A stretch of 64,000 nt of DNA from Candidatus Micrarchaeota archaeon. GTDB taxonomy: Archaea; Micrarchaeota; Micrarchaeia; Norongarragalinales; Norongarragalinaceae. The position numbers and the translations under genes were made by a program. The notes beneath the pieces are model-generated. The model worked only from the letters and a program-made list of their open reading frames with translations. It was not told the DNA's origin and searched no databases. The stretch spans positions 164 through 64,163 of the forward strand of contig JBDRBT010000014.1 in NCBI GenBank assembly GCA_043822385.1, read 5' to 3'. Positions 3,161 through 57,056 of this stretch are shown piece by piece. How positions within the stretch are numbered: the stretch's first letter is position 1; every line of letters starts with the position of its first letter.

Positions 3161-5056
3161 ATGGCAAAACCACGCTCTTACCTACAAACAACCAGGTGGG
3201 TAAACGCCTTAGTAAAAGAAGGCAAACTACCCTGGATAAAGGCGCTTCCGTTAGCCACTCACCAAGAATTCAGCATTAAAAAAATAAACCCCTTAACTAC
3301 AGAAAAACTAGCGGTAAAAACAGATTCACACTTAAATGAATTCAAGGGGACACACGCAGACTATTTCAATACCATAACTACTGACGAATTCACAGCTTAC
3401 TTGATTCATGCAAAAAAACTACCTCTAGGAAAAGCACTTTATGAAGCAACCATCTCAAAAAAAATATCGAAATACTTCAAGCCAGAAGAAATAAAATCAT
3501 TCATTATAGGAAACTGGGCTAGTTGGAAAGCAAACCAGATAACTAACGATTTGTTTAAAAATAATTTGTGTAGAGACCGAGGAAATAAGGAAAAAAAGCA
3601 AGAAACAACCAAACACTTGAAGATGGAATTAATCAAAAGTATTTCAGCATATCACAAACCAATAATAAATCTTAATACGATTTGGGGTGGACACAAAGAC
3701 GGGGGCAATGCAGACCACCTAGATGAAATTGCTTTAAACAACTTGCATAAAATAACTGAAAAAATAAGGGAACACGGCATAAATGCTAACGTCAACTTGC
3801 TTTTCGCTGACTTTCATGCAGACAAAATAAACAAGAAAAACCCTGTAGAAATAAAAGAATACCACAAAGACATTCAAACTCTAGCTGCAAATAAGGGCTT
3901 TACTGTAACAAAACTAAGCGACTTCTGGCTAACACATAATCCTTACGCTAAGCAAGGGGAAAATCCTGAAGAAGCTAAAGACAGCCTAAACAAAGCAATA
4001 ACCGCAATGAAAATACTCGAAGACGAAGGAATAAGCGCTATTAAAACAAAAAAACATTACAGTGGAAGCAAACAACCGGAAGAAGCGTTCGCAGCTTACA
4101 CTACTATAAGAAATATGGAAAACAGTTTATTGGAAAAACACGCCGAACCAGGAACAATCTTTTTGTCATTCAGTAATCCAAGACAAAAAGAAACAAAGGA
4201 AAACGAACCTGAAAACACTATTCACTTCAGCCCCATCGGACACAAGGAAAACGACTTGCCGTGGTTTACTAAAGGAAAACCAATTGAGATAAAATCAAGA
4301 TTAGACGAAAAAGAAAAACGCAAACTAACTGAACTAGCTGAAGACCCTATTAAAGAAAAAGAAAAAATAGTTGATTCAAAACGAGTTGGATTCACAGACT
4401 GGCGGGTTCTAGGAACAAAAATAGGCTTGCTGTTGCTAGCGGGAACGCTTACTTTCGGCGGAAGTGCTTCAGCAATAAACCAGCACTACCAAAAACTCGT
4501 GAAACAAGAACAACAAAAACAAGAATTAATCATAGCGCAAGAAACAGCAAAAGACGCGAGAATTAAACACGAACTAGAAAAAGTCGGAATAACGCACCCG
4601 GACTGGATTAAAGCAATGAAAACAAACAAGAACGTAGTAAAAAATTATTCTTTCCTAGATCCACTAACTCCGAAAGACCTAGTTCAAATTAAAAAAGTAG
4701 GGAGCGCATTCGGCCAAGGCAGCCCAACTACAATTAACCTTGCAATGCCTTTACTAGTAATGTGGAATAACCACCTATCCGCATCCAGTGACCCCAAAAG
4801 TGCGTTAGACTGGGAAAAAACAGAAATAGACGCTGCAGCAAGAGTCTTAGCTAAGCAAGTCGGGTCAGATGGATTTATAGTAAACGATGTTTACCGCCTT
4901 GCAGAAGTCATAAAAGATAATAATAGGGATCCAGAATTCAGGAAAACCATGAACATACTTTCAGAATACGCTAAGTACGGAATATATCCCTTCGATGAAC
5001 CAGTAATTCCAGATTGGATGAAGGAAATGGAAAAACAAAAAGCAAAAAAGAAATAG
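3161..5056 (+). CDS. large orphan protein with one central TM helix
   Basis: 631-aa ORF, Lys-rich. Hydrophobic segment GTKIGLLLLAGTLTFGGSASAI near residue 425. No family recognised by eye. Confidence 0.6.
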   Translation: MAKPRSYLQTTRWVNALVKEGKLPWIKALPLATHQEFSIKKINPLTTEKLAVKTDSHLNEFKGTHADYFNTITTDEFTAYLIHAKKLPLGKALYEATISKKISKYFKPEEIKSFIIGNWASWKANQITNDLFKNNLCRDRGNKEKKQETTKHLKMELIKSISAYHKPIINLNTIWGGHKDGGNADHLDEIALNNLHKITEKIREHGINANVNLLFADFHADKINKKNPVEIKEYHKDIQTLAANKGFTVTKLSDFWLTHNPYAKQGENPEEAKDSLNKAITAMKILEDEGISAIKTKKHYSGSKQPEEAFAAYTTIRNMENSLLEKHAEPGTIFLSFSNPRQKETKENEPENTIHFSPIGHKENDLPWFTKGKPIEIKSRLDEKEKRKLTELAEDPIKEKEKIVDSKRVGFTDWRVLGTKIGLLLLAGTLTFGGSASAINQHYQKLVKQEQQKQELIIAQETAKDARIKHELEKVGITHPDWIKAMKTNKNVVKNYSFLDPLTPKDLVQIKKVGSAFGQGSPTTINLAMPLLVMWNNHLSASSDPKSALDWEKTEIDAAARVLAKQVGSDGFIVNDVYRLAEVIKDNNRDPEFRKTMNILSEYAKYGIYPFDEPVIPDWMKEMEKQKAKKK

Positions 5057-5095
5057 AACTTTCTTTGATTAATTTTTCTTTCTAAGAAAAATTAG

Positions 5096-5266
5096 TGGGG
5101 ACGCCGAGATTCGAACTCGGATCTTCAGGTATCTTCTTTGCTGCTCTTCACGAAATCAGAGCTCCAATAATCTTATCATTCTCCTTTCGGAGTCAAAATA
5201 CCTATTTTTTATTGTTTTTATTACAAAACTGGAGCCTAACATGCTGCCAGGTTATACCACATCCCC
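5096..5266 (-). tRNA. tRNA-Trp(CCA) candidate with 98-nt intron after position 37
   Basis: Read on the minus strand. The acceptor stem is GGGGATG/CGTCCCC (7 bp including one G-U) with discriminator A. The T arm is CCGAG-TTCGAAT-CTCGG. The anticodon stem is TTAGG (5' exon) paired with CCTGA (3' exon). The loop is CTCCAG|intron|A. Exons are 5266-5229 and 5130-5096, giving a 73-nt mature tRNA with no encoded CCA. The D stem is weak (GTAT/GCAT). Confidence 0.7.
5131..5228 (-). ncRNA. tRNA intron with box C/D-like architecture (C, D', C' boxes and guide to anticodon loop)
   Basis: Minus-strand elements: C-like ATGATAA (5179-5173), guide TTGGAGCT (5167-5160), D' CTGA (5159-5156), C'-like GTGAAGA (5151-5145), and a further CTGA at 5128-5125 that lies in the 3' exon. 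The guide pairs with GGCTCCAG of the 5' exon. A CTCC-GAAA-GGAG hairpin precedes the C box. Confidence 0.45.
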
Positions 5267-5330
5267 GTTATTAGAATAATATTCTGTGCAAGCAACTTAA
5301 AAATCATTCCAGCACTTACAGTAATACAGA

Positions 5331-5990
5331 ATGGCTACTTTAATTGGTGTTGACGAGGCAGGACGCGGATGCGTAATCGGGCCGTTAGTGATTTGCGCGT
5401 TTAAAATAAACGAAAAACACGAAATAGAATTAAAAAAAATGGGCGTGAAAGACTCTAAACTATTGGCACCAACAACCAGAAACAAGTTATACAAAGAATT
5501 AATCAAAAGCAAACACTGTTTGCGCATTATTCCAGCAACTGAATTAACTGAGTTAATGAACAAAAAAATTTCTTTAAACGAAATCGAGGCAATAAAAATA
5601 GCGGAGTGCCTGCAGGAACTAGACGACAACGAGACAACTGCGTTCATTGATTCTCCTGACGCGAACCCGAAAAAGTTTGCTGAAAGAATCAAACGGCTTG
5701 CGCCAAACCTCAAGATTAAGATAATTGCTGAAAACAAGGCGGATGTAAACCACTTGGTTGCGAGCGCAGCTTCAATAATAGCTAAAGAAACGCGCGAAAT
5801 GGAAGTAACAAGAATAAAAAAATTGGTTGGCGACTTTGGTTCAGGTTATACATCTGACGGGAAAACAATTGTTTTCTTGAAGAAACATTACGGTAAAAAT
5901 AAAGCGTTGAATGAATTTATTCGTGAAAAATGGAGTACTATAAAGAACTTGAAGACAACGCAAGTAAAACTAGGAAATTACTTTAAGTGA
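5331..5990 (+). CDS. rnhB: ribonuclease HII
   Basis: N-terminus MATLIGVDEAGRGCVIGPLVICAF is the classical RNase HII catalytic motif. Length is 219 aa. Confidence 0.9.
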   Translation: MATLIGVDEAGRGCVIGPLVICAFKINEKHEIELKKMGVKDSKLLAPTTRNKLYKELIKSKHCLRIIPATELTELMNKKISLNEIEAIKIAECLQELDDNETTAFIDSPDANPKKFAERIKRLAPNLKIKIIAENKADVNHLVASAASIIAKETREMEVTRIKKLVGDFGSGYTSDGKTIVFLKKHYGKNKALNEFIREKWSTIKNLKTTQVKLGNYFK

Positions 5991-6337
5991 GCTAACACTG
6001 CATGCACTAAGTCATCGTGCTTCAACTTAGAAAACCCGTTTACTTGTTCAACATGCTCTGGTTTAACGCGATTAGTTCTAATCAAAGTTTTTAACACTAA
6101 AGACTTTTCAGCTAGGTTCACGCTATGATCAACTAAAGGAGCATATTCCGAACTTTTTAGTTTTAATTCCTCTCTCAATTCAGAAGTATGTTCCGCGCCT
6201 AAAGAATTTACTTTTGCACTTAAAGCTTCAATTTTTTCTGTATTCAAGCCTTTAAGCTTAAAGGTAGTGGTGTGAAAATCCATTTTATGGCCTTCACTAA
6301 CATAACGCGTTTTTGAGTGTTCGCCTTTCAATGCCAT
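5978..6337 (-). CDS. hypothetical protein
   Basis: 119-aa ORF convergent with rnhB (13-nt overlap). No recognisable motif. Confidence 0.4.
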   Translation of the reverse strand: MALKGEHSKTRYVSEGHKMDFHTTTFKLKGLNTEKIEALSAKVNSLGAEHTSELREELKLKSSEYAPLVDHSVNLAEKSLVLKTLIRTNRVKPEHVEQVNGFSKLKHDDLVHAVLAHLK

Positions 6338-6416
6338 TCAAACCCCCCTTTAACAAAAGTAGTTCAAGCAACCTTAAAACTAATGGCATTAAACAAAAAA
6401 AGGGGAGGAAAGAAGC

Positions 6417-7112
6417 TTAGAAGAGTTTTTCCAAGTCTTTTTCTTTCTTTCTAGCTACTCTAGCTACTGAGTCCTTCAAGCCCAAGCCAATTGCTATTGC
6501 TAAACCCAAGCCAATAGCCAAGCCTAAAGCGCCTAACAGTATAGCGAAAGAATTCTCAAGAATCGACACGTTTGCTTTAGGAATCAATAAAGGTAGTGCA
6601 ATAACTATTCCAGAGTAAGCAATGAAGACTTCAATAACCCAACCAACTAGCTTGGCGAAAGGAATCTTTGACATTTTAATGTGGTCAGTAATATAGTCTC
6701 CAGCTACTAAAGCAAGCACGAGTATAGCTAATCCTTGCAGCAAGTTGCTGAACGTGTAAGCAAACAACCAACTAATCAAGGGATACAAAAAGAATTCAGG
6801 TCCAGCTAAGCGCATTGCGGCACTGCCACCAATGTGCAAGAAAATTATTAGTGTAGACCACTTCAAGAGTTTAGTAAAGAAGTCAGTGAAAGTAAAACCA
6901 AGTAAAGCATCATGAATATGCCTCTTGCGCAAGCCTTCCTCAAACTTTACGTGTTGGAAAAAGTGTTTTAGGATATCTACAAGCCAGTTAGCAACAATCC
7001 AGCCAATGCCAAAGGCAATTAACACCATCAGCAAGCCGCCTAAATCAAATAAAAAGTTTTTCGATGCAACTCCAAGCTGCAGCATTACTTCATTGTATAT
7101 AGATTCCAACAT
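6417..7112 (-). CDS. integral membrane protein (conserved-TM-helix / mechanosensitive-channel-like)
   Basis: 231 aa with about 5-6 hydrophobic helices, a Gly/Ala/Ile-rich C-terminal helix (GLAIGLGLAIAIGLGLKD) and a charged tail. Confidence 0.55.
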   Translation of the reverse strand: MLESIYNEVMLQLGVASKNFLFDLGGLLMVLIAFGIGWIVANWLVDILKHFFQHVKFEEGLRKRHIHDALLGFTFTDFFTKLLKWSTLIIFLHIGGSAAMRLAGPEFFLYPLISWLFAYTFSNLLQGLAILVLALVAGDYITDHIKMSKIPFAKLVGWVIEVFIAYSGIVIALPLLIPKANVSILENSFAILLGALGLAIGLGLAIAIGLGLKDSVARVARKKEKDLEKLF

Positions 7113-8074: not shown

Positions 8075-8293
8075 ATGGATTTTAAGGTGTTATTCAAGAC
8101 TAGAAAAGGAAATGTAGTTCTCGAATCCAGTGAAAAACAAGGAATCGAGAAGAAATTATTGAACCAAGCAAACCAAAAGAAAGCAATGATTTTCGATACA
8201 ATCGGGTCAATAAAAAAGCCATTTTACTTAGCTAAACCCTTAGATGAAAACGTCGCGGGAGTATTAACGAGTTTGAAGGTTGATAATAAATGA
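8075..8293 (+). CDS. H/ACA RNP component Gar1-like protein
   Basis: 72 aa. The core AMIFDTIGSIKKPFYLAKP matches the Gar1 pattern (v.dvFGPv..PY..vKP). ATGA overlap with the tfb start. Confidence 0.5.
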   Translation: MDFKVLFKTRKGNVVLESSEKQGIEKKLLNQANQKKAMIFDTIGSIKKPFYLAKPLDENVAGVLTSLKVDNK

Positions 8294-9189
8294 AGTGTTC
8301 TGAATGCGGTAGCAATAAAGTAAAGCGAGACTCAGAAAGAGGAGAAGTAGTTTGCAGTGATTGCGGACTAGTTCTTGAAGAAAATGTAGTCCAAGAAGGA
8401 CCTGAATGGAGGGCTTTCGACGCTGAACAAAGAGCTACTCGCGCTAGAACAGGCGCTCCATTAAAATACATGTCTCCAAACAAGGGCTTAGTAACTGAAA
8501 TCGACCAGTACAACAGGGATGTCCGCGGCGGGAAAATAGCTCCAAGCCAGCAAGCACAATTATACAGAATGCGAAAGTGGCACAAGCGCGCTTCAATTTC
8601 AAACAGCATTGAAAGAAACCTAGCTATTGCCTTAACTGAATTAAACCGAGTAGCTTCACACTTGGGTTTGCAGGAAGTTATTCGCGAGAGCTCTGCATTG
8701 CTTTACAGAAAGTGCGTTGAAAAAGGATTAATTCGCGGAAGACAAATCGAGTCAGTAGTAAGCGCAGTTATTTACGCGGTATGCAGGCAATACGGAGTGC
8801 CTCGCACTCTAGATGAAATTTCTGCAATAGCTGAAATACCAAAAAAAGAAATTGGTAGAACCTTCCGTTTAATAACCCAGGAATTACACTTAAAGATTCC
8901 TTTAACCAACCCTCAATTCTACATTACTCGCTTCGTTACTTCACTGAAACTAAGCGGTGAAACACAAAAGAAAGCACAAGAAATACTAAACCAAGCTTTA
9001 GACAAAGGCCTAGTTTCAGGTCGTGGCCCAATGGGTGTTGCTGCAGCCGCAGTATACATTGCTTCAGTTCTTGTTGGTGAGAGACGCACGCAAAAAGAAG
9101 TAGCAGACGTAGCAGGAGTAACAGAAGTAACAATTCGAAACCGCTACCGCGAACTAAAGAAGGCTTTAGCGCTGAAAGTAAGCATTTAA
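8290..9189 (+). CDS. tfb: transcription initiation factor TFB (TFIIB)
   Basis: N-terminal Zn ribbon CSECGSNKV...VCSDCGLVLEE, a B-finger/linker, and two cyclin-fold repeats ending in the HTH segment QKEVADVAGVTEVTIRNRYREL. Confidence 0.95.
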   Translation: MKCSECGSNKVKRDSERGEVVCSDCGLVLEENVVQEGPEWRAFDAEQRATRARTGAPLKYMSPNKGLVTEIDQYNRDVRGGKIAPSQQAQLYRMRKWHKRASISNSIERNLAIALTELNRVASHLGLQEVIRESSALLYRKCVEKGLIRGRQIESVVSAVIYAVCRQYGVPRTLDEISAIAEIPKKEIGRTFRLITQELHLKIPLTNPQFYITRFVTSLKLSGETQKKAQEILNQALDKGLVSGRGPMGVAAAAVYIASVLVGERRTQKEVADVAGVTEVTIRNRYRELKKALALKVSI

Positions 9190-53191: not shown

Positions 53192-53953
53192 ATGCTATCC
53201 ATAATTCAATTAACAGCAATCATTCTGCTCTTAGCAAGTAGCTTCTACTTCGTTTACTACGCAATAGACAAAAAAGAACGAAAAAAACACGCTAAAAGAA
53301 TTTTTTTAAGCATAATCGGCTTTGCCCTAGGCTTACTGCTCTTGTTAAACTTGTTAAATCCTTTCTTGCTAATGCAAGATACTACCGCAGCACCTCAAGA
53401 CTCGTCTTTAGTGAAATACCTCAAGCAAGCATACACTCAAAAAACCGAGCCCTTAATCTGCGAACAAAACGGTTTAGTTTACTGGCGCGAACTACGCGTA
53501 TACGAAATAGATACAGCTGAAGGTCATAAAAAAATAAGCACTATAACCCTGAATATTAAAAACAACGGGAATAAAGCAGTAACTAACATTATTGTTAAAG
53601 AAAAATTACCGTCAGCAGTAGCAACCGTGCCTGAAGAACTAATTGACTTTTCAATAAAACCCTTAAGATTCGAACAAGGCTCAGTAGTAGTAGACTGGCT
53701 ATTTGAAAACATTGAGCCTGAAGAAACAAAAAGCGTTTCATACACTGTAGAAAAAGAACTAGACGAAGAAGTATTAAACGAGTACGAAGCACCTAAAGTA
53801 GTTTCACAACAACTAGGGGATGAAACGCACTATCCCGCTGAGGAAAGAGACGTTGCAGCACAAGCCGGTTCAGTAGATTACAGCTTACTCGGATTAGTGG
53901 CAGTAATAGTAGTGTTAGGCGGAGTAATAGCGATTCTAGCTAGAAGACAATAA
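53192..53953 (+). CDS. bitopic membrane protein with extracellular beta domain
   Basis: 253 aa. N-terminal TM helices, a central segment ITLNIKNNGNKAVTNIIVKEKLP (CARDB-like), and a C-terminal TM LLGLVAVIVVLGGVIAIL. Confidence 0.5.
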   Translation: MLSIIQLTAIILLLASSFYFVYYAIDKKERKKHAKRIFLSIIGFALGLLLLLNLLNPFLLMQDTTAAPQDSSLVKYLKQAYTQKTEPLICEQNGLVYWRELRVYEIDTAEGHKKISTITLNIKNNGNKAVTNIIVKEKLPSAVATVPEELIDFSIKPLRFEQGSVVVDWLFENIEPEETKSVSYTVEKELDEEVLNEYEAPKVVSQQLGDETHYPAEERDVAAQAGSVDYSLLGLVAVIVVLGGVIAILARRQ

Positions 53954-54655
53954 CTCTAAATCCCTTAAATTCAAGTTGCGCACTCGCTTGTTTTCAATCA
54001 ATCCAGCTAAAGCATCAGCCTTGCTCTTAGAAAAGCCAGAATTAATCAAAGCCTTGCGTGCATTCTGATTTTTATGCGAAAACAACGCTCTAACTAAATC
54101 TTCATCAAGCTTAACTGGCTTGGTTTTCTTAGTAATTAAAACAACTATAGAATCAACTTTAGGAACAGGATCAAACGAATACCTACTCACGTCAAACAAC
54201 TTTTTTACGTCAGCTTTAGCTTGAGTAGTAACCGAAAGCCGCCCGTAATCTCTAGACCCGGGTTCTGCAATCAAGCGTTCAGCAAACTCCTTCTGCAGCA
54301 TTAACACTGCTTTCTTGAAATTACTGTCAAGCAACTTAAATAATAATTCAGAAGACAAGTGATAAGGAATATTACCAAAAACTAATTCAAAATCAAAACT
54401 AGATTTACGCGCATCAACAAAATTAACTTCAACATTAGTCAAACCCGTTAAATTCTCGTTAATTTTAGGCCTTAATTTAGAATCTATTTCCAAAGAAATT
54501 ACTCTAGCTGCACGCAAACCTAAAGCACGCGTAAGCAAGCCCTCACCAGCACCAATTTCAAGCACTACTTTATTCTTTAAAGGCACTGCGCCAGCAATAT
54601 CGCTAATAATGCTCCGGTCGCATAAAAAAACTTGGCTTAATTTTTTACTGCGCAT
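53936..54655 (-). CDS. ksgA: 16S rRNA (adenine1518/1519-N6)-dimethyltransferase KsgA/Dim1
   Basis: KKLSQVFLCDRSII, VLEIGAGEGLLTRAL, GNIPYHLSS. Confidence 0.9.
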   Translation of the reverse strand: MRSKKLSQVFLCDRSIISDIAGAVPLKNKVVLEIGAGEGLLTRALGLRAARVISLEIDSKLRPKINENLTGLTNVEVNFVDARKSSFDFELVFGNIPYHLSSELLFKLLDSNFKKAVLMLQKEFAERLIAEPGSRDYGRLSVTTQAKADVKKLFDVSRYSFDPVPKVDSIVVLITKKTKPVKLDEDLVRALFSHKNQNARKALINSGFSKSKADALAGLIENKRVRNLNLRDLELLSSS

Positions 54656-54657
54656 AA

Positions 54658-55215
54658 TTAGTACTGCTCTCTCCTAGGAGGCTTCACAAACAAGTAATAC
54701 TTTTCAATTCCTTTGAGTTCAGCGAGTATTCGTTGAATAAACAATTCTTGAACACTAACTAAATGCGGAATCCTCTTCTGCACGTCAGCAAAACTCTCGA
54801 AAGGCGTTTTCTCTCGTTCAGAAAGCAAAGCACTCAAATGTTTCTTTCCAACTGAAGGTAATTGTTCTAAAGTATGAGACCGAACACTAATCGATCCAGC
54901 CTTATTCAAGAAAGCAACTAACTCTTTCTCGCGAGAAACAACAATAAGCCTAATTGCTTGCTCTAACTCTTGTTGAGCACGAACAGTTAATTGATCAAAA
55001 GAAATTCTTTGCTTAATGTGATCAACCTTGTCTCGTTCTTCAGCGCCAATATATACTTTTTCAAACAAGTCGAACTTTACATCCGGCTTTACAACTACTT
55101 CCAATAAAGTAAATTGCACGTCGCCCACTACTTGCGCTAGAGACTCTTTAACCGCCTCGCCAGACTTTCCATGCGGCAAGTGGTCCAACAATAAGGCAAA
55201 ATCTTCTCTATTCAC
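54658..55215 (-). CDS. DUF655 archaeal HhH/OB protein
   Basis: LLLDHLPHGKS..., HTLEQLPSVGKKHLSALLSEREKTPFESFADVQKRI. It occupies the conserved position between rpoF and ksgA. Confidence 0.8.
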   Translation of the reverse strand: MNREDFALLLDHLPHGKSGEAVKESLAQVVGDVQFTLLEVVVKPDVKFDLFEKVYIGAEERDKVDHIKQRISFDQLTVRAQQELEQAIRLIVVSREKELVAFLNKAGSISVRSHTLEQLPSVGKKHLSALLSEREKTPFESFADVQKRIPHLVSVQELFIQRILAELKGIEKYYLFVKPPRREQY

Positions 55216-55223
55216 GAATTAAA

Positions 55224-55550
55224 TCACTTCTCGTGTTCTTTTAAAATACTCATCGTCTTCTTAACGTCTTCATCAGTTAATTCAACGGAATAACTAGCTA
55301 AAAATAAACGCAAGTCATCTTCTTTAGTAGGCAAGACGTTAACTAATTGTACTACAACGCGGTCTTCAAACAAACTCAAGCCAGAAAGCGCTTTTTGTAA
55401 AGCATTAGCTTCCTTTAGCGATAAAGAAACGTTTTTCTCTAAGTATTCGAAAGTCAATTGTTGTTCGTAACCCAACTCTCCTTCCTTCTTTCGCTTCTTC
55501 AACAAATCAAGCGCTTCCGCGTTAGTAATTGGTTTTTCAGTCAATAACAT
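55224..55550 (-). CDS. rpoF: DNA-directed RNA polymerase subunit Rpo4/F
   Basis: MLLTEKPITNAEALDLLKKRKKEGELGYEQQLTFEYL... Internal ATG 55550 lies directly after the L21e stop. Conserved L21e-RpoF-DUF655-KsgA order. Confidence 0.8.
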   Translation of the reverse strand: MLLTEKPITNAEALDLLKKRKKEGELGYEQQLTFEYLEKNVSLSLKEANALQKALSGLSLFEDRVVVQLVNVLPTKEDDLRLFLASYSVELTDEDVKKTMSILKEHEK

Positions 55551-55551
55551 T

Positions 55552-55827
55552 TCAAAACCTCTCAACGTGAACACTGGAAACAATTATAGTTTTAGGTTTC
55601 CTGCCGTCCATTACTTTCAAAACCAAAGCCCTGCCTTGCTTGCCTTCAACAACGCCAATCCGATGGTTAAACCTAAGCGCTTCTAGCCTGCCGCGCAAAA
55701 ATCTCTGGTTAACATTAATTCTTACGTTCTCTCCCGGCTTGAAAACCGAAAGAATTCTTGAAACGGTAGTATTCCTAGCAGTCAAATTTCGACTGTGTTT
55801 GGAAAAACCACCATGAGACCTCTTCAC
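55552..55827 (-). CDS. rpl21e: 50S ribosomal protein L21e
   Basis: MKRSHGGFSKHSRNL...FKPGENVRINVN...RFNHRIGVVEGKQGRALVLKV. Confidence 0.9.
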   Translation of the reverse strand: MKRSHGGFSKHSRNLTARNTTVSRILSVFKPGENVRINVNQRFLRGRLEALRFNHRIGVVEGKQGRALVLKVMDGRKPKTIIVSSVHVERF

Positions 55828-55972
55828 AAATAACCACCTTGAAAAGCAATAAAAACAGGCTACCTCGGAAAGTATTTTGCCTTAGTTAGAATATAAATCT
55901 TTTTAAACAGGCAAAACAAAACATTTAAATATATAAAATTTAGAAAGCGGTTTAAAAACGGGTGAAAAAGAC

Positions 55973-56296
55973 ATGGTCAAGGTAAAGTCTAAGAAAAAAA
56001 CTTACAACAAAAGAATTGACACTAGTTTTAAAGTAGAAAACATAGTTGCTTCAGCTAACTTAAAAGTTGAATTAGATTTATTCAACATTGCTATGGAAAT
56101 AGACAACGTTGAATACGAGCCAGAACAATTCCCGGGCGCAATAATGCGTTTGAAAGACATTGGCACAACCTTGTTGTTATTCAAGAACGGGAAAGTAATT
56201 TGCTCGGGCGCTAAGAGCGAAGCTCAAATCGGCAGGTCAATCAAGAGAGCAGTTGAATTACTAAGAGGCTTCATGAAAGACCCAGCGGTAGTTTAA
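55973..56296 (+). CDS. single-repeat TATA-box-binding-protein-like protein (half TBP)
   Basis: 107 aa. Lys-rich N-terminus, then one complete TBP repeat: VENIVASANLKVELDLFNIAMEIDNVEYEPEQFPGAIMRLKDIGTTLLLFKNGKVICSGAKSEAQIGRSIKRAVELL. The stop at 56294-56296 is followed by the 5S rRNA gene. GGGTGA RBS and TTTAAATATATAAAA TATA upstream. Confidence 0.8.
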   Translation: MVKVKSKKKTYNKRIDTSFKVENIVASANLKVELDLFNIAMEIDNVEYEPEQFPGAIMRLKDIGTTLLLFKNGKVICSGAKSEAQIGRSIKRAVELLRGFMKDPAVV

Positions 56297-56338
56297 AAAC
56301 GCTAGGTTTTTAAACTCGGTTCGGCACGATAATTACGT

Positions 56339-56447
56339 TAGCGGCCATAGGAGAGGTGGCACACCCGTTCTCATTCCGAACACGGAAGTTAAGACCTCTT
56401 ACGACGTTGCCAGTACTGTCTTTCGACGGGAACGCGCGTTGCTGCTA
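56339..56447 (+). rRNA. rrf: 5S ribosomal RNA (short, about 109 nt), not linked to 16S/23S in this window
   Basis: TAGCGGCCATAGGAGAGGTGGCACACCCGTTCTCATTCCGAACACGGAAGTTAAGACCTCTTACG...GGGAACGCGCGTTGCTGCTA. Conserved CCGAAC and GAAGTTAAG blocks are present. Helix I pairs TAGCGGC with GCTGCTA. TTTTTAAA lies about 25 nt upstream. End positions are +/- a few nt. Confidence 0.85.
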
Positions 56448-56488
56448 CATCTTTCTCATTATTAAAGTTTTTAAGCACTCTAGCGCTA

Positions 56489-56791
56489 ATGCTTGCGATG
56501 GATTTAAACACCCTAGTCTTCCTGTTATTCACGCCAGTCAGCGCAGTAAATGCTTTCGCTATTTTTTACTCAAACCACAAAAACAAGAAAACCGGAATTT
56601 ACTTGAAGCAATTGAAAGACCGGTTGAATGAAATAAGCGAAGGAATTAAAGACACTCAAAACAAAATTACGGAAGTAAAAAAAAGCCACGTTAAACAAGC
56701 TAATATTAGCGAGCTAGAAAAAAAATTAAACGAAGCTACTGCAGAATTGCTTTACTCTAAAAAGAAAATGAGGTCGAAACAAATTGTCTGA
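56489..56791 (+). CDS. small N-terminal-TM coiled-coil protein
   Basis: 100 aa. TM LNTLVFLLFTPVSAVNAFAIF, then a heptad-like Lys/Glu-rich helix. Confidence 0.4.
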   Translation: MLAMDLNTLVFLLFTPVSAVNAFAIFYSNHKNKKTGIYLKQLKDRLNEISEGIKDTQNKITEVKKSHVKQANISELEKKLNEATAELLYSKKKMRSKQIV

Positions 56792-57056
56792 CTTTCTCAC
56801 TCCAGAAGCAACCGCATTAATAGGCGTTGCAGCAGTTTTAACAGTAATCACTCTAATTACCGTAAGAAACGCTAATACTGAAACTAACTTAATTCGACGC
56901 AAGTTGCGGAACCAAATAAGCGACTTGGAACAAGAAATCGTAGTTGTTCAAAGCGACATACTTAAAATAAAAAAAGAAACAGAAAAGAAAATAGACGCGG
57001 AATACATGAACAGGCGGGTTGAAGGCTTAATCAACTTGATTAAAGGCAAGCACTAA
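56784..57056 (+). CDS. small N-terminal-TM coiled-coil protein (similar architecture)
   Basis: 90 aa with a TTG start overlapping the previous stop by 8 nt. TM ALIGVAAVLTVITLITV, then a coiled-coil-like region. Confidence 0.4.
   Translation: MSDFLTPEATALIGVAAVLTVITLITVRNANTETNLIRRKLRNQISDLEQEIVVVQSDILKIKKETEKKIDAEYMNRRVEGLINLIKGKH

Follow-up and report, generated by a model that had tools for sequence, protein, structure and literature searches.

Can a gene that encodes only half of a TATA-binding protein (TBP) serve an archaeon as its general TATA-binding factor? TBP is the textbook example of a pseudo-symmetric protein, supposedly derived from a homodimeric ancestor by duplication and fusion. 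This idea has previously lacked a natural, primary one-lobe TBP on which it could be tested. The question is raised by a short open reading frame in the window, by which we mean the whole stretch of 64,000 nucleotides (64 kb) of Candidatus Micrarchaeota DNA that was analysed. A sequence-only reading had described this frame as a half TBP with exactly one complete repeat, a Lys-rich N-terminal tail, its own TATA-like element and ribosome-binding site and a clean stop, and had likened it to the symmetric ancestor postulated for TBP.

The description of the gene itself holds. The frame runs intact from ATG to TAA, and the Lys-rich tail is present at the start of its 107 aa, which contain one PF00352 (Pfam) domain. 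This domain spans residues 18-98 and model positions 1-83 of 85 with a score of 95.2 bits (E 2e-27), which exceeds the gathering cutoff of 22.9 and places the protein in the TBP lobe family. Full-length TBP models in NCBIfam are matched over one lobe only; the best match reaches 90.6 bits where that model's cutoff is 255, and the protein lies below the cutoffs of all ten matched TBP models (181 to 347). The canonical architecture, two lobes in one polypeptide of ~180 aa, is absent from the window protein and likewise from 17 orthologues. An identical protein, ABH803_02895, is recorded at NCBI on a 67,258-bp Candidatus Micrarchaeota MAG contig and is named 'hypothetical protein'. The AF2 model of the window protein (pLDDT 85.1) has the element order of the TBP lobe fold, S1-H1-S2-S3-S4-S5-H2, and the best Foldseek matches to this model are TBP lobes at an rmsd of ~1 A, for example 1mp9_B (TM 0.72 and an rmsd of 1.1 A across 82 columns). 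The window lobe also aligns without gaps to either lobe of three archaeal TBPs of known structure, 2z8u, 1mp9 and 1ais. The window protein is a TBP-family lobe, since its sequence, fold, key residues and locus all fit the family definition. With canonical archaeal TBPs (1ais, 1mp9, 2z8u) it shares the lobe fold at 40-65% identity per lobe, the Phe pair, the EPE stirrup, the L21e/RpoF slot and the presence of TFB in the genome. It differs from them in having one lobe rather than two per chain, a basic tail and scores below the NCBIfam cutoffs. A single window lobe is unable to form the saddle on its own; the saddle needs two chains and would then be exactly symmetric.

Table 1. Features of the window that bear on the one-lobe tbp gene.
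Feature	Position	Strand	Evidence or remark
TFB gene	8290..9189	+	Pfam Zn_Ribbon_TF and two TFIIB repeats; expected partner
KsgA/RrnaAD rRNA dimethylase	53936..54655	-	PF00398 (Pfam), synteny
DUF655 protein	54658..55215	-	PF04919, 182 bits (Pfam), synteny
RNA polymerase subunit Rpo4/RpoF (Rpb4 family)	55224..55583	-	PF03874 (Pfam), synteny
Ribosomal protein L21e	55552..55827	-	PF01157 (Pfam); divergent from tbp, opens the conserved flanking block
Putative promoter, AAACA (BRE-like) then TTTAAATATATAAAA TATA-like box	55919..55938	+	35-54 nt upstream of ATG; function inferred
GGTGA, Shine-Dalgarno-like	55961..55965	+	7 nt before ATG
One-lobe TBP gene	55973..56296	+	basic N-tail 1-17, single TBP lobe 18-98, short C-tail
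5S rRNA gene, full length	56337..56450	+	Rfam RF00001, 67.2 bits

The surroundings of the gene agree with what had been read from the letters, namely an L21e gene upstream on the other strand, a 5S rRNA gene downstream, a TFB gene elsewhere in the window and no second repeat hidden nearby (Table 1). The L21e gene lies 145 nt upstream of tbp and the 5S rRNA begins 41 nt past the tbp stop codon. Searching the window in any frame with tblastn and five TBPs returned no second TBP-like sequence (next best E 0.015). The gene also has the TATA-like element and ribosome-binding site of its own that had been claimed for it. The TATA-like element is the AAACATTTAAATA box at 55919-55931, the ribosome-binding site is the GGTGA element, and a GGTG-type element stands at a similar distance in most of the orthologous loci. 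At the putative tbp promoter, AAANNTTTAAATA is the sole perfect copy in the window, and AAAACATTTAAATA is also found upstream of the orthologue in L001. As a general promoter motif AAANNTTTAAATA fails, with 4 occurrences against ~14 expected, and 38 upstream regions yielded no clean position-specific promoter consensus, though TTTAAA and TTTATA boxes are many in them. A search for expression evidence in the published supplements on Ca. Micrarchaeum harzensis matched TatA only.

Downstream of the one-lobe tbp, and with the same orientation, a 5S rRNA gene is found in the window and in L001, L002, L010, L013, L014, L020 and L021. The two genes lie within ~90 nt of each other in five members of the clade and 0.5-0.8 kb apart in L001, L002 and L013. 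Between them in the window stands a T-run/TTTTTAAA element that may be a terminator, a 5S promoter, or both. Directly after the 5S gene are two small overlapping frames on the plus strand (56489-56791 and 56784-57056; 100 and 90 aa), each hydrophobic at its N-terminus, with a charged tail resembling a coiled coil and no Pfam family; L001 has frames of 98 and 89 aa in a similar position (1523-1819 and 1812-2081). On the other side of the gene, L004 has an AAA_14/DUF4143 ATPase gene (4458-5942) as an insertion between L21e and its one-lobe tbp.

The residues on which TBP function would depend are retained. The stretches E-Y-E-P-E-Q-F-P-G and L-L-L-F-K-N-G-K are invariant in the clade of the window protein. 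F53 (in QFPG) and F70 (in LLLFKNGK) are invariant both in this clade and in 44 one-lobe homologues and align to the Phe positions of solved TBPs; we take them to be the two DNA-kinking Phe residues that each lobe carries in TBP-DNA structures. E49, E51 (in YEPEQF) and Q52 are invariant as well. The stirrup Glu pair (C.L3.2, C.L3.4) makes conserved contacts to TFB/TFIIB (PMC7221094), and E49 and E51 of the window lobe match these positions and are predicted to contact TFB. The tip of the stirrup, which reads DIGTT in the window clade versus EPKTS in relatives, was counted against reading the protein as a general TBP.

The sequence-only reading had proposed a search of related MAGs for TBP-domain frames of about 100 aa, and 17 further species-level relatives of this kind were found in independent assemblies, all 92-128 aa long and 76-94% identical to the window protein. 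A protein search gave five more short homologues (102-128 aa, 81-94% identical), whose contigs come from the NCBI MAG GCA_013360305.1, one JGI metagenome and three Logan runs. A genome scan utilizing one genome per GTDB species, of which the best 80 loci were taken, gave at least 14 further species with a match of 76-86% identity; the known one-lobe locus of GCA_013360305.1 was not among these 80. Below the 14 closest species, identity falls sharply to 66% or less among the loci listed. The frame is bounded by stops on both sides and encodes a single lobe of 92-126 aa in 14 of these 14 species loci. Selection was analysed over 78 core residues in 18 sequences, in which 56 of the 78 residues are invariant despite a median nucleotide divergence of 25%, and third codon positions hold 73% of the nucleotide differences. 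The dN/dS ratio, taken from 44 unsaturated pairs (dS was saturated in 109), has a median of 0.05 and a maximum of 0.11. The one-lobe tbp is strongly held by purifying selection, and the one-lobe TBP is a real, conserved and widespread gene.

Most members of the clade have a basic N-tail with a net charge of +3 to +7, and in three members the N-tail is weaker (net +2 to +3) and the C-tail is basic instead. The clade also has a signature, AIMRLK[DE][ILM]GTT, that is absent from the two-lobed proteins whose sequences were compared. One-lobe TBPs in NCBI MAGs are mostly annotated 'hypothetical protein', because they score below the cutoffs of the full-length TBP models; a few are found in bins labelled bacterial (Brevinematia, Omnitrophica), which are probably binning errors. 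Since one-lobe genes fail the full-length models and go under that name, comparative surveys may under-count or mis-score TBP in DPANN genomes.

The genomic neighborhood of the gene is shared by its relatives and by ordinary tbp genes. The window, L001-L005 and 11 of the 14 species loci all have a KsgA-DUF655-RpoF(Rpo4)-L21e block divergent to the one-lobe tbp. In other Micrarchaeota the same L21e slot holds a two-lobed tbp at many loci, for example P0046 on a 408-kb contig, and in Anstonellales the gene in the slot is an ordinary two-lobed tbp. This common slot makes the one-lobe gene the positional orthologue of canonical tbp. Using the GTDB classifications in the supplement of PMC12892359, the window clade corresponds to Norongarragalinales (six members checked, from the five families UBA10210, JACPGT01, JACRGE01, CABMDW01 and CAITNU01), and the two-lobed examples that were placed taxonomically (L033, L045, L080 and L081) are Anstonellales. 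One lobe is the order-wide state of Norongarragalinales and no isolated oddity. Norongarragalinales are reported to have one of the richest metabolisms within the Micrarchaeota and to be possibly free-living (PMC12892359), so the one-lobe trait is not simply a by-product of extreme genome reduction. What is new here is a one-lobe variant within the known TBP family at the tbp locus of an archaeal order.

A neighbor-joining tree of lobes (78 positions) recovers the window clade as monophyletic with a bootstrap of 99/100. One-lobe genes as a whole are not monophyletic in this tree (0/100); they are interspersed among lobes that belong to two-lobed TBPs. The window lobe had been called most like the C-terminal repeat of archaeal TBPs, and this is true to a limited degree: it is nearly equidistant from the N and C lobes of its relatives, the C lobe is the closer one in 82 of 105 comparisons by a margin of a few percent, and its N-versus-C log-odds of +23 falls in the gap between the range for true N lobes, -148 to +1, and that for true C lobes, +31 to +133. 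A firm identity as a C-terminal repeat was rejected for the window clade, as both distances and log-odds are ambiguous.

We think it probable, if well short of certain, that the gene encodes the organism's general TATA-binding protein, a primary, homodimeric and two-fold symmetric factor whose direction on the promoter would be set by TFB. Because one lobe cannot make a saddle, two chains would have to pair, and because both chains would come from one gene, the TBP that they form would be exactly symmetric and have two equivalent TFB sites. The two identical chains would dimerise by way of the surfaces at which the N and C lobes of ordinary TBP meet, giving a two-fold symmetric saddle to which each chain would contribute one kinking Phe pair (F53, F70) and in which each would present an identical stirrup (E49, E51, Q52) to TFB. 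Such a saddle would lack a front and a back, and the direction of the promoter would depend wholly on TFB, through its recognition of the BRE that flanks the TATA box on one side. DNA affinity may be raised by the basic tail, which is N-terminal in most cases, and this would compensate for the two lobes not being covalently joined. Since archaeal TBP is close to symmetric as it is, and its polarity is known to come from the contact between TFB and the BRE, a symmetric TBP is mechanistically plausible. If a homodimeric TBP is used, one can ask whether a fully symmetric saddle supports directional transcription through TFB and the BRE alone; what is gained from fusing the lobes, and how easily the fusion is undone and redone, would likewise become testable with natural proteins.

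The one-lobe protein could instead be an accessory paralogue, with a two-lobed TBP encoded elsewhere in the genome and the single lobe either modulating transcription (e.g. by capping DNA or TFB) or serving a subset of promoters, much as TbpA might. One-lobe archaeal TBPs are described in the literature by Brindefalk et al. 2013, with a one-line remark in Ravarani et al. 2020. Halobacterial TbpA is a one-domain TBP that clusters with genuine TBP lobes, is found beside several very similar full-length TBPs and is non-essential (Brindefalk et al. 2013, PMC3597702). TbpA thus sets a precedent, and its dispensability shows that a one-lobe protein can be something other than the primary factor. The monopartite TBP-domain proteins of Thermococcales (P. 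furiosus NP_578195) also occur beside a normal TBP; they have ~95 aa and a single TBP-like domain, are highly diverged from TBP and form a separate cluster (PMC3597702). The window protein resembles both, having a single TBP domain like TbpA and a size similar to that of the Thermococcales proteins. It differs from the latter in its Pfam TBP score of 95.2 bits and its 55-65% identity to TBP lobes, and does not show their strong divergence. It differs from TbpA in that its gene occupies the orthologous tbp slot, is found order-wide and is without a close two-lobed relative. In the openly searchable full-text literature we found no account of a one-lobe protein standing in for tbp at the tbp locus throughout an order, nor of any such protein in DPANN.

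A search of 5.8 billion proteins returned no close two-lobed relative of the clade, the best two-lobed match being 64% identical and without AIMRLK[DE][ILM]GTT, whereas TbpA is very similar to the TBPs that reside with it. The gene sits in the ancestral tbp slot and not at a secondary locus, and it is conserved to the degree usual for a core factor. No second TBP locus was present for the 14 Norongarragalinales genomes among the 80 best loci, and the same 80 loci include two other genomes with multiple TBP loci, JAGGYF01 with two different one-lobe genes and JAPLWT01 with three copies. The lack of a second locus among these loci is suggestive only, and the scope of the survey, which comprised 64 kb of the host genome and the 80 best loci of the GTDB-species scan, leaves some room for an accessory role. 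Taking both sides together, we consider this role unlikely.

It is somewhat more doubtful still that the window lobe has as its partner another, different one-lobe protein from elsewhere in the genome, in a split TBP whose heterodimer would keep the asymmetry of the N and C lobes. In favour of such a system stands Iainarchaeum AUK171 (JAGGYF01), which has two different one-lobe genes, L023 in the slot with a C-lobe-like NIVAS motif and L050 elsewhere with an N-lobe-like NMVAS motif, and which may have a split, heterodimeric TBP. In the 14 Norongarragalinales genomes no second lobe gene was present among the 80 best loci, though L050 was found there at 55% identity, and the 64-kb window holds no partner lobe. 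The window lobe is also intermediate between N and C lobes, as expected if it plays both roles.

The structure could also be an artefact in which de Bruijn assemblers collapsed two DNA-identical lobes into one; misassembly in general had been raised with the first description of the gene. The lobes of related two-lobed genes do have exact tracts of up to 93 nt in common, and the isolated case of L066 could be such a collapse. Nevertheless, ~18 independent species-level assemblies, made with different tools, agree on one structure while synonymous sites are saturated between lineages, so that an artefact would need perfectly identical lobes in each of these diverged lineages. In addition, the Logan contigs of L002, L003 and L005 (k=31) pass unbroken through the one-lobe gene and both of its flanks. 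Each 31-mer is present only once in Logan contigs by construction (PMC12424806), and by the logic of de Bruijn graphs a second, identical lobe hidden in tandem would be expected to interrupt the contig. The long basic N-tail, as opposed to the short N-termini of two-lobed genes, argues in the same direction, and we set the worry of misassembly aside as very improbable. Finally, a decaying remnant of a deleted tbp would account for the half-normal length, and it is refuted as a pseudogene reading by the selection analysis (intact frame in every lineage, dN/dS ~0.05, 56 of 78 residues invariant across the order), which leaves it practically no credence.

One-lobe genes are found well beyond Norongarragalinales. 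The 80 best GTDB loci comprise 30 complete one-lobe genes, 48 two-lobed genes and 2 cut by contig ends. One-lobe genes occur in CABMEP01/Zaosheniarchaeales (L044, L046), Wunengiarchaeales (L024), Fermentimicrarchaeum (L031), Burarchaeum australiense (P0190) and Iainarchaeum of the Iainarchaeota (L023, L025). Those outside Norongarragalinales are often in the L21e slot too, and one of them, in the slot on a 1.08-Mb JGI contig, was confirmed by a Logan contig. When the L046 protein was used as query, most of the matches were short (88-134 aa), and no match had the full two-lobed length. For the broader proposition we see the case for and against as about evenly balanced: whole orders (Norongarragalinales, and probably CABMEP01/Zaosheniarchaeales, Wunengiarchaeales, Fermentimicrarchaeum and Burarchaeum) together with some Iainarchaeota would carry out all transcription with a symmetric homodimeric one-lobe TBP and have no two-lobed TBP, and tbp would have switched repeatedly between one and two lobes by collapse and tandem re-duplication.

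The two-lobed genes point to how such switching may occur. Exact DNA tracts common to both lobes, e.g. of 93, 89, 80, 79 and 71 nt, are found in them; in L032, L061, L081, L036, L006 and L079 these tracts measure 62-93 nt in lobes that are otherwise 46-68% identical as protein. Judged from sequence, the tracts indicate ongoing intragenic gene conversion and would also provide a substrate for deletion. A one-lobe tbp would then originate by collapse of a two-lobed gene through recombination between its lobes, which we regard as the likely origin. In L066 the front of lobe 1 of a P0046-like gene continues into the back of lobe 2, with the join inside a stretch of 29 residues common to both lobes; L066 could be the product of a lobe collapse or, as a single case, of a collapse in assembly. 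In the opposite direction, the two lobes of P0004 are 91% identical, basic leaders included, and cluster with the L027 one-lobe gene (99/100), which is what a recent tandem re-duplication would produce. P0004 is effectively a natural, covalently linked 'homodimer'. Together with P0001 and P0009 (lobes 83-91% identical) it belongs to the near-symmetric two-lobed DPANN TBPs, which are the closest full-length relatives and effectively covalent homodimers, and which differ from the one-lobe form in having two lobes fused in one chain. Given the orthologous locus and the interleaving in the neighbor-joining tree, the symmetry of the one-lobe TBP is most likely secondary, arising by loss of a lobe, or part of a cycle between one-lobe and two-lobe forms. 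The likening of the gene to the symmetric ancestor therefore survives in part: a conserved one-lobe TBP exists, but its symmetry is probably derived and not a relic.

Several loci add to the variety of these genes. An upstream 109-aa frame in L088 was considered as a degenerate N-lobe and rejected, being a hydrophobic membrane protein. In the MAG JAPLWT01, L026 (JAPLWT010000057.1) carries two near-identical one-lobe TBP genes in tandem, ~1.2 kb apart (4983-5291 and 6252-6566), and L030, on another contig of the same MAG, has a third copy in the L21e slot; the tandem copies could be an intermediate toward re-fusion of the lobes. The one-lobe TBP of L051 (4791-5258, WALL01000027.1) is 155 aa long and begins with ~45 residues of A/K-rich repeats (AKKKAVKKKPA) that are reminiscent of histone H1 and other basic DNA-binding tails. 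The reverse of the one-lobe form is seen in P0241 (272 aa), P0242 (376 aa), P0247 (702 aa) and P0285 (329 aa), which have three or four TBP-lobe matches per chain.
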